A stretch of 64,000 bases of DNA from positions 192,001 to 256,000 of the forward strand of contig CAWJEN010000006.1 of assembly GCA_963841915.1 (NCBI GenBank), given 5' to 3'. Both the position numbers and the translations under genes were made by a program. The stretch comes from an uncultured Planctomycetota bacterium. GTDB lineage: Bacteria; Planctomycetota; Phycisphaerae; Tepidisphaerales; Tepidisphaeraceae. This document shows positions 223 to 25,164 of this stretch, one piece after another. Below the pieces are notes generated by a model. The model was not told the DNA's origin. It made no database searches and saw only the letters and a list, made by a program, of their open reading frames with translations. Position 1 is the first letter of the stretch; the number at the start of each line of letters is the position of its first letter.

Positions 223-1437
223 ATGCCTGCGATGGTCACCGCAGACGACGTCACCCGCGCCGCCGACCGCTTGGCCGACGGCATCAGGCGGACGCCCTGC
301 GATCGTGCCCCGACCCTCGACGCCCTCTGCGGCGAGGCCGTCGTCTACGTCAAACGCGAGTACCTTCACCCGACCGGCAGTTTCAAGGAACGCGGCGCCC
401 GCAACGCCCTGCTGCAACTCTCGGCCGACGCTCAAGCGGCCGGCGTCATCGCCGCCAGTGCCGGCAACCACGCCCAGGCCCTGGCCTATCACGGCCGTGA
501 CCTCGGCATCGCCGTCAGCGTCGTCATGCCCCGCTGGGCACCGCTCGTGAAGGTCAACAACTGCCGCAGACTCGGGGCCGACGTGACGCTCAGCGGCGAC
601 AGCTTCGAAGACGCCCGCCGACTCGCCGTCGACCTCGCCGCCAGCGACGGCATGACCTACGTCCACGGCTTCAACGACGACGCCGTTATCGCCGGCGCAG
701 GCACCGTGGCCATCGAAGTGCTCGACGACGTGCCGGACGTGGAGGTCGTCATCATTCCCGTCGGCGGGGGCGGCCTGATCGCGGGCATGGCGACGTACAT
801 CAAGGACAAGCGACCCGACTGCCGAGTCGTGGGTGTCGAGACCGAAGCCGCACCGACCCTCTCACAAGCCCTCGCCGCTGGCCAACCCGTCGACGTCGAG
901 ACGGCCACCAGCATTGCCGACGGCCTGGCGATCGGCCGCCTCGGCGACAACTGTTTTGCCCCGTGCCGCGAATACGTCGACGAGGTCGTGACGGTCAGCG
1001 AAGCCGAAGCCGCCCGTGCGGTGCTGCGGCTACTCGAAGGTGAAAAGGCGGTCGTCGAAGGGGCAGGCGCCGCCAGCCTCGCGGCGGCGACGGGTCCGTT
1101 GAAGAAGGATCTGGCCGGGAAGAAGGTGGCGCTCATCCTGTGCGGCGGCAACATCGACGTGCAGACGCTCGGCCGCGTCATCGAACGCGGCCTCGCCGCC
1201 GACGGACGACTCTGCCGCATCGCCTGCCGCACCAGCGACCGCCCCGGCAGCCTCGCCAAACTCCTCGACCTCGTCGGCAAGCTCGGCGCAGGGGTCAAGG
1301 AGGTGCATCACGACCGAAGTTTCGGCAGCGGCGACATCGGCCGGGTGGATATCGAACTCGTGCTGGAAACCGATGACAAAGCACATGCCGCCCGCGTCCG
1401 GGAGGCGGTGCTCGAGGCGGGCTATCTCTCGTCGTGA
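223..1437 (+). CDS. ilvA: Threonine ammonia-lyase (dehydratase), short form with C-terminal ACT domain
   Basis: PLP lysine motif TGSFKERG, SAGNHAQ, PVGGGGL, CGGNID, and ACT-like DRPGSLAKLL; start may be 232. Confidence 0.9.
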   Translation: MPAMVTADDVTRAADRLADGIRRTPCDRAPTLDALCGEAVVYVKREYLHPTGSFKERGARNALLQLSADAQAAGVIAASAGNHAQALAYHGRDLGIAVSVVMPRWAPLVKVNNCRRLGADVTLSGDSFEDARRLAVDLAASDGMTYVHGFNDDAVIAGAGTVAIEVLDDVPDVEVVIIPVGGGGLIAGMATYIKDKRPDCRVVGVETEAAPTLSQALAAGQPVDVETATSIADGLAIGRLGDNCFAPCREYVDEVVTVSEAEAARAVLRLLEGEKAVVEGAGAASLAAATGPLKKDLAGKKVALILCGGNIDVQTLGRVIERGLAADGRLCRIACRTSDRPGSLAKLLDLVGKLGAGVKEVHHDRSFGSGDIGRVDIELVLETDDKAHAARVREAVLEAGYLSS

Positions 1438-1824: not shown

Positions 1825-3900
1825 CTACTTCGCGGTGAGCAGCGAGCGGTTGTTGCGCTCTTCAACGAGGCGGGCGACGGCTTCGTCGAGGGTGACGACG
1901 CCGAGGTCGCCTGTGGTTCTGCCGCGGAGGCTGACGGTGCCGGCCTCGGCTTCCTTGCCGCCGCAGACGAGCATGTACGGAACCTTCCGCTCGGTCGCGA
2001 GGCGGATCTTGGAGCCGACCTTGTCGTTGCCGTCGTCGAGCGTCGCCCGCAGACCTGCCGCTTTGCACGCGTCGACGACTTTGTGCCCGTAGTCGTTGAA
2101 TTTCTCACTGATCGGCAGCACCCGTACCTGCTCGGGGGCCAGCCACAACGGGAAAGCGCCGGCAAAGTGTTCGATGAGGACGCCGACGAACCGCTCCATC
2201 GAGCCGAAGGGCGCGCGGTGGATCATGACCGGACGGTGGTCGGTGTTGTCGCTGCCGACGTAGCTGAGGTCGAACCGCTGGGGCAACTGGTAGTCGACCT
2301 GCACCGTACCGAGCTGCCACTCGCGGCCGATGACGTCTTTCACCACAAAGTCGATCTTCGGCCCATAGAAAGCGGCCTCGCCCGGCTCGGTCGTGAAGGC
2401 GACGCCGAGCGTTTTGGCGGCCTCCGTGCAGGCGGCTTCGGCCTGGTCCCATTGCTTGGCATCGCCGACGAACTTGTCGGCGTCAGGGTCACGCAGGCCG
2501 ACGCGTACGCGATAGTCGTTCATGCCGAGCGTGCCGAGGACGATCTTGACCAGTTCCAGGCAACCCAGCACTTCGGCAGCGACCTGTTCTTCGGTACAGA
2601 AGATGTGCGCGTCGTCCTGCGTGAAGCCGCGGACGCGGGTCATGCCGCCGAGCTCGCCGGATTGCTCCCAGCGGTAGACGGTGCCGAACTCTGCGAGTCT
2701 TACCGGAAGATCGCGATAACTGTGCGGGTCCGACGCGTAGATGCGGATGTGGTGCGGGCAGTTCATGGGCTTGAGCATGAAGCCCTCGATTTCGCCTTCT
2801 CCGAGCTTGTTGGCCAGTTCGCCGCAGGTGCAGCCTTCCTTGGCGAGCAGCTCGACCGTCTCTTTCTCGATCAGCGGCGGGAACTGGCTGTCGCTGTAGT
2901 ACGGGTAGTGGCCGCTGGTTCGGTAGAGGTCGAGCTTGCCGATGTGCGGCGTGAAAACCTGCTTGTAGCCCTGCCGTTGGAGGTGCTCTCCGATGAAGTT
3001 CTGCAGCTCTTGGCGGACGACCGCGCCGTTGGGCTTCCAGAGGACAAGGCCCTGGCCGACCTTGTCGTCGATCGTGTACAGACCGAGGGCGGGCCCGAGG
3101 ACACGGTGGTCGCGTTTTTTGGCTTCTGCAAGGGATTCTAGGTGTGCGTCGAGGTCGCCCTGGGTGTAGAAGGCCGTGCCGTAGATGCGTTGGAAGCGGT
3201 CGCTGGTGACATCGCCGTGCCAGTGGGAGCTGGCGGTGCTGGTGAGCTTGTACGCCCCGATGCGGCCGGTCGATGGAACGTGCGGGCCTTGGCAGAGGTC
3301 TTCCCAGTTCTGATCCTTTTGCCCGGTGACGTACCACGAGAGCGTCGTCGCCCCGCCTGCGATGGCCCGATCGGCGTTGTCGAGTTTGTACTTGTTTCCT
3401 TCAGTCTTCAGCCGCTCGACGCCAGCCTCGGTCGGCAGGTCGTACCGGGTAAACGGACGATCCTCGCCGACGACGGCTGCCATTTCCGCCTCGATCTTCT
3501 CGAAGTCGTCGGAGCTGATCGGCGGCTCGATCGCGATGTCGTAGTAAAAGCCGGTCTCCAGCGGTGGTCCGTAGGCGAGAACCGCGTCCGGTCGAACCTT
3601 TTGGATCGCCTCTGCCATCACGTGTGCCGTCGAGTGCCGGAGCAGGTAGAGGGCGTCTTTCTCATGCTGTTCGTCACGCCATTTGCTGCGATCCTTCTTG
3701 TCGACGCGCGGGCCGGTGACGAGGGCAACGTCGTGCTCGCCTTCGGGCAGCGGGCGATGGAGGTCGACGAGCACATGGTCGACGCGGGCACCGACGGCGG
3801 CGGCGGCGAGCTTCTCGCCGATGGTCACGGCCAGGTCGTAAGGCGTGCTGCCGTCGGGCAGGTCGCGGCGGGAACCATCGGGCAGGATCGCGGTGGGCAT
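1825..3900 (-). CDS. thrS: Threonine--tRNA ligase
   Basis: TGS domain, RHSTAH, DLCQGPH editing motif, KPMNCPHH, EAAFYGPK, HRAPFGSMERF; ATG at 3900. Confidence 0.97.
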   Translation of the reverse strand: MPTAILPDGSRRDLPDGSTPYDLAVTIGEKLAAAAVGARVDHVLVDLHRPLPEGEHDVALVTGPRVDKKDRSKWRDEQHEKDALYLLRHSTAHVMAEAIQKVRPDAVLAYGPPLETGFYYDIAIEPPISSDDFEKIEAEMAAVVGEDRPFTRYDLPTEAGVERLKTEGNKYKLDNADRAIAGGATTLSWYVTGQKDQNWEDLCQGPHVPSTGRIGAYKLTSTASSHWHGDVTSDRFQRIYGTAFYTQGDLDAHLESLAEAKKRDHRVLGPALGLYTIDDKVGQGLVLWKPNGAVVRQELQNFIGEHLQRQGYKQVFTPHIGKLDLYRTSGHYPYYSDSQFPPLIEKETVELLAKEGCTCGELANKLGEGEIEGFMLKPMNCPHHIRIYASDPHSYRDLPVRLAEFGTVYRWEQSGELGGMTRVRGFTQDDAHIFCTEEQVAAEVLGCLELVKIVLGTLGMNDYRVRVGLRDPDADKFVGDAKQWDQAEAACTEAAKTLGVAFTTEPGEAAFYGPKIDFVVKDVIGREWQLGTVQVDYQLPQRFDLSYVGSDNTDHRPVMIHRAPFGSMERFVGVLIEHFAGAFPLWLAPEQVRVLPISEKFNDYGHKVVDACKAAGLRATLDDGNDKVGSKIRLATERKVPYMLVCGGKEAEAGTVSLRGRTTGDLGVVTLDEAVARLVEERNNRSLLTAK

Positions 3901-3916: not shown

Positions 3917-3947
3917 AAACAAAAGCCGCCCGGTTGAGCGGGCGGCT
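3917..3947 (-). terminator. Intrinsic terminator (attenuator) just upstream of thrS
   Basis: Minus strand AGCCGCCCG-CTCAAC-CGGGCGGCT followed by TTTGTTT, ending about 16 nt before the thrS ATG. Confidence 0.8.
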
Positions 3948-3976
3948 GCGTCAGGGTGGACGAGAACCGGCCCGCG

Positions 3977-4024
3977 TTACAGCGGCGTGGTCGAAGTGGT
4001 CGCGGTCGTCGTCGTGAAGGTCAC
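3977..4024 (-). CDS. Threonine-rich leader peptide (MTFTTTTATTSTTPL)
   Basis: GTG ACC TTC ACG ACG ACG ACC GCG ACC ACT TCG ACC ACG CCG CTG TAA; 9 Thr in 15 codons; directly upstream of the thrS terminator; alternative ATG starts at 4042 and 4054. Confidence 0.8.
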   Translation of the reverse strand: MTFTTTTATTSTTPL

Positions 4025-4030
4025 GGCCCA

Positions 4031-4058
4031 ACCATAGATCATGCCGCCGCTCATGCAA
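4031..4058 (-). promoter_or_regulatory. Putative sigma70 promoter for the thrS leader
   Basis: TTGCAT-N16-TATGGT on the minus strand; the GTG start lies 6 nt after the -10 (leaderless geometry). Confidence 0.5.
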
Positions 4059-4415
4059 CCGCTCCTCCTGAGACCGGTCGCCGTGACGCTGGATCCGACA
4101 TTCGTCGTGGCCAACGTCATCGAGGCCGGGCTTTGGGTGGTCGTCGCGATCATCGTCCTGGCGAAGTGGAAGCACAAGACGGCAGCGATCGTGCTCGTCG
4201 CATTCGGCATCAGCGACCTCGTCGAGACACAGACGGGTGCGTGGTGGAAGCCGTGGTGGCTACTCGCCTGGAAGGCACTGTGCGTGATCGCGCTGCTGGT
4301 GATCGTCGGTTCCACGTGGAAGTCGTCGGTTCCACGTGGAACAGGCGACGTCAAGATTTGGATGAGGCGCACCAAAAGACCGGCGCCCTGGAGGAGGAGG
4401 GGACGCCGGCCTTAG
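4041..4415 (+). CDS. Small hypothetical membrane protein
   Basis: Hydrophobic segments and Trp-rich motif FGISDLVETQTGAWWKPWWLLAWK; 3' end overlaps two parS sites and the first hairpin of the array. Confidence 0.65.
   Translation: MPPLMQPLLLRPVAVTLDPTFVVANVIEAGLWVVVAIIVLAKWKHKTAAIVLVAFGISDLVETQTGAWWKPWWLLAWKALCVIALLVIVGSTWKSSVPRGTGDVKIWMRRTKRPAPWRRRGRRP
4308..4343. promoter_or_regulatory. Tandem parS-like sites
   Basis: GGTTCCACGTGGAAGT (4308-4323) and GGTTCCACGTGGAACA (4328-4343), within a 20-bp tandem duplication TCGTCGGTTCCACGTGGAA. Confidence 0.7.
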
Positions 4416-4921
4416 AGGAGGCTCGAAAACGGATGCCGGCCGGAGGAGGAGAAGCCGGCACCCGTGGAGGAGGATCAAAAGCCGACGCTGGAGGAGGAGG
4501 AGAACCAGCGTCGGCTGCGGAGGAGGTCTAAAACCGACGTCGAGGGAGGAGGAAACTCGACGCCGGTTGGAGGAGGCTCGAAACCCGGCACCGGGGGAGG
4601 AGGAAACCCGATGCCGGATGGAGGAGGTCCTGAGGGCTGGCCAGTTGGCCTAGTGGCATTGGCGTCCGCATCGCCAAGGCCCTGCCCGTGTTCTAAAAGC
4701 CGATGCGGGCGGAGGAGGAGAACCCGCACCGGCTGGAGGAGGTTTAAAACGGGCACCGGCCGGAGGAGGAGAAGCCGATGCCCGTGGAGGAGGTTTGTGT
4801 GGTCGCTGCGTTCTCCGACGCTGAAGGCCCTTTCGGGCTGGTGCGGGCTTCGCGACGGTCGCGTCAGCTCCGCTGTGTTCTAAAACCGGTGCCGGCCGAA
4901 GGTTGTCCTCCGGCACCGGTT
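4374..4921 (-). ncRNA. Putative structured ncRNA array: 8 hairpins with CCUCCUCC (anti-SD) loops and linkers
   Basis: ~52-nt period; stems differ in sequence but keep pairing; all six internal stem mismatches are A-C on + (G-U on -); a U-tract follows each stem on -. Confidence 0.75.
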
Positions 4922-24606: not shown

Positions 24607-25164
24607 ATGAGCGACCCGAACCCGCAGGCGACCCCGGAACTGAACGACTACGTCGAAGACGCCGACGCCGAGACGTCGCAGAACACGCCGGCCGAAGAAG
24701 AAGCTGTCGACGAGCTGGAGCTGCTCCGCCAGGAGAATGGCGAGCTGCGCAACATGCTCGCCCGCAAGCAGGCCGACTACCAGAACAGTCAGCGGCGGCT
24801 CGAAAAGGACGCGTCGCAACGCCTCAAGGTCGCCGCAGGCCAACTCGTGCGCGAGTTCCTGCCCGTCGTCGACAACCTCGAGCGGGCGCTGGACGTGCCC
24901 GACACAGTCGACGTCGCGACCGTGCTTAATGGCGTCCGCGGCACCTACACGCAGCTCGTCGATGTGCTCAAGACGAATGGCGTTGAATCCATCGCCCCGG
25001 AGGTCGACGAGCCGTTCAATCCCGAGCATCACGAGGCGCTCATGCAGGAGCCGCGTAATCCAGCACCCGACACGCAGGTCGTAACGCGTGTCCTGCAAAA
25101 GGGCTACAGCTTCGACGGTCGGGTCATCCGTCCGGCTCAGGTTGCGGTCAGTGCCTCTGCCTGA
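24607..25164 (+). CDS. grpE: Nucleotide exchange factor GrpE
   Basis: ADYQN, LPVVDNLERAL, FNPEHHEAL, QKGY...RPAQVAV. Confidence 0.95.
   Translation: MSDPNPQATPELNDYVEDADAETSQNTPAEEEAVDELELLRQENGELRNMLARKQADYQNSQRRLEKDASQRLKVAAGQLVREFLPVVDNLERALDVPDTVDVATVLNGVRGTYTQLVDVLKTNGVESIAPEVDEPFNPEHHEALMQEPRNPAPDTQVVTRVLQKGYSFDGRVIRPAQVAVSASA

Follow-up and report, generated by a model that had tools for sequence, protein, structure and literature searches.

A conserved threonine-codon leader and terminator upstream of thrS in Phycisphaerae, a probable leaderless ribosome-mediated attenuator

We find that a short upstream open reading frame (uORF) with a run of Thr codons, followed by a terminator, is a real and conserved feature in front of thrS in the class Phycisphaerae. 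Based on comparative sequence evidence and computed RNA folds, we consider it very likely that this leader places thrS under ribosome-mediated transcription attenuation that senses charged tRNA-Thr, with a uORF that is probably leaderless. The window under study is a stretch of 64,000 nt from an uncultured bacterium of the Tepidisphaeraceae (GenBank assembly GCA_963841915.1, contig CAWJEN010000006.1, positions 192,001 to 256,000), and coordinates refer to this window unless stated otherwise. An earlier sequence-only reading had proposed a Thr-rich uORF and a terminator ahead of thrS, and the anatomy of the window reads as described there. The respective features, in the direction of transcription, are:

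4053..4058, minus strand: possible -35 hexamer TTGCAT, weak (3/6 consensus bases)
4031..4036, minus strand: -10 hexamer TATGGT, 16-nt spacer from TTGCAT, 6 nt before the GTG of the uORF
3977..4024, minus strand: leader uORF encoding MTFTTTTATTSTTPL, GTG start at 4024-4022, TAA ending at 3977, probably leaderless
3965..3975, minus strand: predicted antiterminator 5' strand, starting 13 nt downstream of the last Thr codon's first base
3949..3962, minus strand: predicted 4-bp hairpin that closes the antiterminator on its inner side (3962-3959 pairs with 3952-3949)
3924..3947, minus strand: intrinsic terminator hairpin of 9 bp (8 G-C) with a 6-nt loop, stem 3947-3939/3932-3924
3917..3923, minus strand: terminator U tract, with its end 16 nt upstream of the thrS ATG
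1825..3900, minus strand: thrS, threonine-tRNA ligase (ThrRS), 691 aa from ATG 3900

The whole leader spans about 125 nt. The identity of ThrRS is confirmed by TIGR00418 (635.6 bits vs. a cut-off of 383.65), and this is the sole full thrS match in the window's genome. The uORF has 15 codons, and Thr is encoded by codons 2, 4-7, 9, 10, 12 and 13. The terminator hairpin is predicted at -19 kcal/mol (z -3.67; 1/200 shuffles equally stable), and its 5' arm is common to the antiterminator pairing. With a cognate-codon uORF (9/15 Thr) and an intrinsic terminator between uORF and thrS, the leader shows, on sequence and predicted folds, those hallmarks of leader-peptide attenuators in the broad sense that can be assessed in silico. 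Regarding the promoter, TATGGT is kept in 4 of the 6 aligned close loci and is out of frame with the uORF in one of them (L031). TTGCAT overlaps a Met codon of a divergent plus-strand ORF and is absent in close relatives of the window's genome, and a promoter scan of the window's thrS leader gave no site at the scan threshold.

The proposed mechanism is as follows. Transcription would start at GTG 4024 or only a few bases away, and a ribosome would initiate on the leaderless uORF. When Thr-tRNA is plentiful, the ribosome should reach the stop codon and cover 3975-3965, such that, according to the computed fold, the terminator forms and transcription would end at about 3917. When Thr-tRNA is short, the ribosome would stall on codons 2-13 and leave 3975-3965 free, which is then computed to pair with the 5' arm of the terminator before the 3' arm is made. 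With the antiterminator paired, the polymerase would be expected to read into thrS.

As a check of this proposal, the sequence-only reading had named the comparison of thrS upstream regions across Phycisphaerae, and its outcome is positive for uORF and terminator alike. We collected 140 thrS loci and left out 1 without an N-terminal match, 3 with short upstream DNA and 10 duplicates (e.g., L033, which equals the same-genus L004, and L064, which equals the same-family L006). The remaining 126 distinct loci include the window and are mostly from Phycisphaerae; they are the best matches to the query and not an even sample. The non-carrier L017 and the cimA carrier L251 (see below) are from an unpublished genome (G006), and no conclusion rests on them. 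A locus was counted as a carrier when a stop-terminated frame with 5 or more Thr per 8 codons was found at most 300 nt from thrS. This holds for 48/126 loci, compared to 1/126 on the antisense strand and 12/2520 shuffles. When the same test is applied to other amino acids on the sense strand, at most 8/126 loci pass (Arg). On the antisense strand of the 126 loci, the counts of Val (16), Gly (13) and Arg (13) are, we infer, largely a mirror of the ACN run. For the terminator we required -10 kcal/mol or better downstream of the uORF, which is found for 46/48 carriers vs. 12/78 non-carriers. By eye, 7 of these 12 non-carriers have weaker Thr uORFs, including Fontivita pretiosa B-254 (L070).

These counts bear directly on the reading that a low-complexity ACG/ACC repeat stands by chance beside an unrelated terminator. 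High-GC genomes do give Thr-rich shadow frames, and L075, L086 and L088 (4/8 Thr, no stop) resemble them. Given the contrast to shuffles and antisense as well as the tight link to the terminator, however, a chance repeat is effectively refuted and we regard it as extremely improbable.

The leader is patchy within the class. From 121 evenly drawn genomes, 78 were fetched (30 top-scoring, 40 hand-picked across families, 8 overlapping the first set), and 22/77 orientable loci pass the Thr-run test. Per family, carriers amount to 8/16 (f1), 5/6 (f12), 6/8 (f2), 2/5 (f7) and 1/4 (f15), and 0/38 in the other 14 families. Thr runs of 5-8/8 codons span four or more families. Among other Planctomycetota classes, for which 60 of 140 matching genomes were fetched, 1/59 usable loci passes and is without terminator.

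Two variants deserve description. In the close relatives L016 and L031, the -10 box, stop, antiterminator and terminator are kept with fewer Thr codons, and no ATG, GTG or TTG is found just after the -10 box; these leaders are possibly decaying or using another start. In the genome of L016, thrS itself is frameshifted, where an assembly error is possible. A distinct subtype of the thrS leader, seen in family f2 (L014, L019, L232, L235, L236, L237), has its Thr run at the end of the uORF, followed by Cys-stop. Its leaders show alternative hairpins, mostly without a U-tract terminator, and may act via thrS translation or Rho.

When the nascent RNA is folded, i.e., the transcript as far as the terminator loop, the predicted structure (-21.6 kcal/mol, probability 0.98) has a 10-bp helix with one bulge between 3975-3965 and 3947-3938, and 0/30 spacer shuffles are equally stable. 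The antiterminator between 3965-3975 and the terminator's 5' arm, which had been proposed from the letters, is therefore the predicted nascent-RNA fold. Assuming a ribosome footprint of 12 nt 3' of the A-site codon, the probability that the 5' arm is sequestered in the window is 0.98 for ribosomes at codons 2-13, then 0.86, 0.53 and finally 0.18 at the stop. In the set of 37 loci for which start and terminator could both be called, the arm is sequestered (P>0.5) in 36/37 when the ribosome stalls on Thr and in 7/37 when it sits on the stop codon, where the drop is partly built in because masking removes partners. In silico, the two structures are thus mutually exclusive, with an antiterminator that is free on stall and covered at the stop. 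In the untranslated nascent RNA, the antiterminator is predicted in 32/37 loci (0.97 in the window), and this result is the same whether the RNA begins at the predicted start or 30 nt before the first Thr.

The position of the pairing partner is in line with this. Over 46 loci, complementarity to the 5' arm is highest (-10.0 kcal/mol) in sequence windows that begin 9 nt downstream of the last Thr codon, compared to about -3 kcal/mol within the Thr run. The mean energy of the real nascent folds is -24.0, that of spacer shuffles -17.6, and for 31/46 loci no more than 1 of 30 shuffles is equally stable; at the same time, 70% of the spacer shuffles too sequester the GC-rich 5' arm. At equilibrium, the full leader favours the terminator even with a late-run stall (0.95-0.97 in the window), and therefore the switch must be kinetic.

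Tests for specific base pairing gave no covariation signal. When antiterminator strands were swapped between loci, the outcome was close to null: cognate duplexes reached -17.7 vs. -16.5 for non-cognate ones and 0/46 ranked first, and the window's duplex alone is not better than shuffles (p 0.4). Within the six close loci, 84% of the cells are paired in the antiterminator, 91% in the terminator and 74% in the inner hairpin, and the pair counts for antiterminator and terminator are not above shuffles (68-133 of 500). Two antiterminator pairs changed on both sides in these six loci, which is again not above shuffles, and none did so in the terminator. A MAFFT alignment of 42 leaders has 42% identity and is too poor between subfamilies for pair counting.

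The trpL/thrL-type architecture claimed earlier stands in part: uORF, antiterminator and terminator are supported, and the 1:2 protector of a four-segment design is not. The 1:2 helix had been placed at a CCGCG within the Thr codons; it forms 5 bp on paper, occurs in neither predicted fold and is not conserved in the closest relatives. Neither did we find another protector or pause hairpin as in the classical four-segment scheme, since the untranslated RNA is predicted to be antiterminated; a transient pause hairpin is possible. The full-length fold with terminator is the only one to show a longer pairing of the Thr run, together with a 4-bp hairpin spanning the stop codon. Because the 1:2 helix is unsupported, the predicted fold looks like a three-segment design with antitermination as the untranslated default. 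As no strong protector hairpin is predicted, an untranslated leader should read through too.

The non-significant antiterminator covariation would also suit a constitutive leaky terminator or a protein-bound RNA in which the frame is untranslated, e.g., ThrRS on ACN-rich RNA. We consider this highly unlikely: all four Thr codons occur in the runs (ACC 188, ACG 155, ACT 35, ACA 13), such that ACN third positions vary freely but frame, start and stop of the leaders are kept, the partner segment is separated from the last Thr codon by about the length of a ribosome footprint, and ThrRS binds anticodon-like loops and is not known to bind codons. What speaks for a bound protein in addition is that E. 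coli ThrRS autoregulates by RNA binding (PMC2965389; this and all other articles cited by identifier were available to us in part, and statements on them refer to those parts).

We now turn to the start of the uORF. An in-frame start codon lies 4-11 nt after a TANNNT box in 39/48 carriers (34 ATG, 3 GTG, 2 TTG; mode 6). As a background, the same spacing is found for 11/1420 starts inside thrS, with 1.6 candidate starts per uORF. Of the 39 carriers, one has an SD-like motif and only 17 have -35 matches of at least 4/6. Because of this spacing, leaderless initiation of the uORF is likely, in agreement with the earlier assumption of a probably leaderless frame. In the window's genome, TANNNT is found 5, 6, 7, 8 and 9 nt before the first ATG in 59, 133, 45, 56 and 40 of 2398 long ORFs, respectively (333 counts), compared to 2-15 per distance at 12-59 nt, and due to this peak leaderless genes look common there. 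The start of thrS itself has a TANNNT box in 15/78 loci without uORF vs. 3/48 with uORF. Our literature search for leaderless transcription in Planctomycetes found no paper.

Alternatively, the same attenuator could use a uORF that starts at ATG 4054 or 4042 (25- or 21-codon peptide) behind a promoter further upstream, i.e., it would not be leaderless. Both ATGs are in frame, a strong SD-like GGAGGAG (4068-4062) lies 7 nt before 4054, and L003 likewise has an in-frame ATG there. L002, however, is without any in-frame start 5' of its GTG, both ATGs overlap complements of Met codons in the divergent ORF (4041-4415), and class-wide 39/48 uORFs show the -10 spacing but only 1/39 an SD. We thus hold an upstream start to be unlikely; it alters the start, not the sensing, and overlaps with our preferred explanation.

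As an internal control, the window's genome was scanned without bias for leaderless uORFs with terminator, which comprised 667 candidates at 1066 terminator-like sites. Among 9 matches, by eye only the leaders of thrS and cimA are sensible. The latter is an Ile-rich uORF with terminator on the minus strand of contig C3 (about 24894-25110; L141 1895-2193; L242), whose frame can start at a TTG (19 codons) or at an ATG about 70 codons upstream. Citramalate synthase, the cimA product, feeds isoleucine synthesis. Before cimA, at least 3 Ile in 8 codons are found in 15/27 loci, 12 of these 15 with -10 spacing, and the Thr-run threshold of 5 in 8 codons is reached in 0/27. Before thrS, the Ile test is passed by 12/126 loci. 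That the codon run follows the function of the gene is, on sequence grounds, the best comparative indication that the leaders sense an amino acid. For a cimA leader, the literature search found no paper.

This swap also weighs against a general translation-coupling sensor (whiB7-like), whose input would be leaderless initiation or overall ribosome activity with Thr as one cue. Such a sensor would fit the folding of the untranslated RNA into the antiterminator in 32/37 loci, since failed initiation should then give read-through, as well as the loci L016, L031, L010 and L026, in which uORF and terminator are retained although Thr codons are few. The Thr runs of 5-8/8 codons kept in four or more families and their replacement by Ile before cimA, in contrast, point to amino-acid specificity, and we therefore rate this sensor as very unlikely. 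Attenuation of thrS by Thr-tRNA sensing, as first put forward from the sequence, is in turn favoured by conservation, by the partner at footprint distance and by the Ile-for-Thr exchange at cimA.

Elsewhere, thrS is controlled by T-boxes in Firmicutes and by translational autorepression in E. coli, i.e., the same gene and signal (ThrRS need) with a different mechanism. A synthetase operon under a leader peptide is known from the E. coli pheM-pheST attenuator, and the E. coli thrL peptide contains Thr and Ile codons. The planctomycete leader shares with both the cognate-codon run in a short uORF, the alternative antiterminator and the intrinsic terminator. It differs from them in being probably leaderless rather than SD-led, in its use of Thr only, in the lack of a predicted competitive 1:2 protector and in its target thrS. 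Lopatovskaya et al. (2010) reportedly include thrS in the genes for which they predict attenuators, without naming Planctomycetes.

Leader-peptide attenuation itself is textbook knowledge (PMC1183508). The earlier reading had named autorepression and T-boxes as known controls of thrS; it is to be corrected in that synthetase leader peptides, including one for thrS, have precedent (PMC8079986, PMC2965389). In Streptomyces lividans, leaderless leader peptides are described for leuL2-leuS, trpL2-trpS and thrL-thrS (PMC8079986). As in our case, a leaderless uORF precedes a synthetase gene and a thrL stands before thrS; leuL2 also has a hairpin and a U stretch downstream. The S. lividans thrL, however, devotes 2 of its 18 codons to Thr and lacks a U tract, and termination is called unclear (PMC8079986); the planctomycete leader has 9/15 Thr, a clear terminator and class-wide conservation. 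In bacilli, histidine leader peptides precede hisS paralogues, and the authors argue that such leaders arise convergently (PMC2965389). Here too a leader peptide replaces other controls before a synthetase-family gene; amino acid, phylum and sequence are different. The mycobacterial whiB7 uORF likewise yields a terminator when translated and an antiterminator when poorly translated, but responds to many amino acids and drugs (PMC10274678). Mycobacterial polycysteine sORFs are leaderless homopolymer uORFs that sense their own amino acid, and differ in freeing a downstream ribosome-binding site, with no terminator (bioRxiv 10.1101/834739).

The window's leader is matched by no Rfam family. The E. 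coli thr operon leader thrL corresponds to the Rfam Thr leader RF00506 (PMC3766115), and neither RF00506 nor the T-box RF00230 matches the window between 3000 and 5000 at E<=5. At the gathering threshold, no Rfam family is found in 13 thrS and cimA loci. The thrS leader belongs neither to RF00506 nor to the T-boxes and, on its predicted fold, is not classed as four-segment. Our literature search, which took in few subscription journals and left supplements outside, found no Planctomycetota thrS or cimA leader; leaders from Planctomycetes could be among those in the supplements of PMC2965389 and PMC4833913. The available part of PMC4833913 covers Planctomycetes leader genes only as distance statistics, that of PMC3766115 mentions neither thrS nor Planctomycetes, and in that of PMC6614838 thrS appears only in a reference.

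Although the mechanism itself is textbook material, the leader would extend leader-peptide attenuation to the Planctomycetota, a phylum for which we found no earlier report, and add a third mode of thrS control beside T-boxes and autorepression. The thrS and cimA leaders would constitute two unmodelled cis-regulatory RNA families. The former offers a clear way to probe the coupling between leaderless initiation and termination, and is testable because a version of it is present in Fontivita pretiosa B-254, which is in culture. More tentatively, and with less than even confidence, Phycisphaerae may have evolved their own leaderless, protector-less three-segment attenuators (Thr/thrS, Ile/cimA, perhaps more) with read-through as the untranslated default and a terminator-less version in family f2. 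If true, this set would integrate cognate tRNA charging and leaderless initiation efficiency, opposite to trp-type super-attenuation.

Some neighbouring features were observed as well. A threonine ammonia-lyase gene (223-1437, plus strand; TIGR01127 above cut-off) converges on the 3' end of thrS. The divergent ORF on the plus strand (4041-4415) encodes a hydrophobic protein of 124 aa with no NCBIfam match; its start codon sits in the spacer of the proposed thrS promoter, and by eye it is also found in L003, L016 and L031. Further upstream, the minus strand holds seven GC-rich hairpins (4372-4800), whose loops and linkers contain CCUCCUCC, with 15 matches to this motif. The triple-motif pattern of this array was not found in 120 other genomes of the class. 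The array is present upstream of thrS in L002, L003, L016 and L031, and not in L004 or L032. It resembles alphaproteobacterial cuckoo sRNAs, with 35.2 bits for Rfam ar14 and hence below the gathering threshold of 58.8; the part of PMC4615179 available to us makes no mention of Planctomycetes. The array is possibly a lineage-specific anti-SD RNA array.
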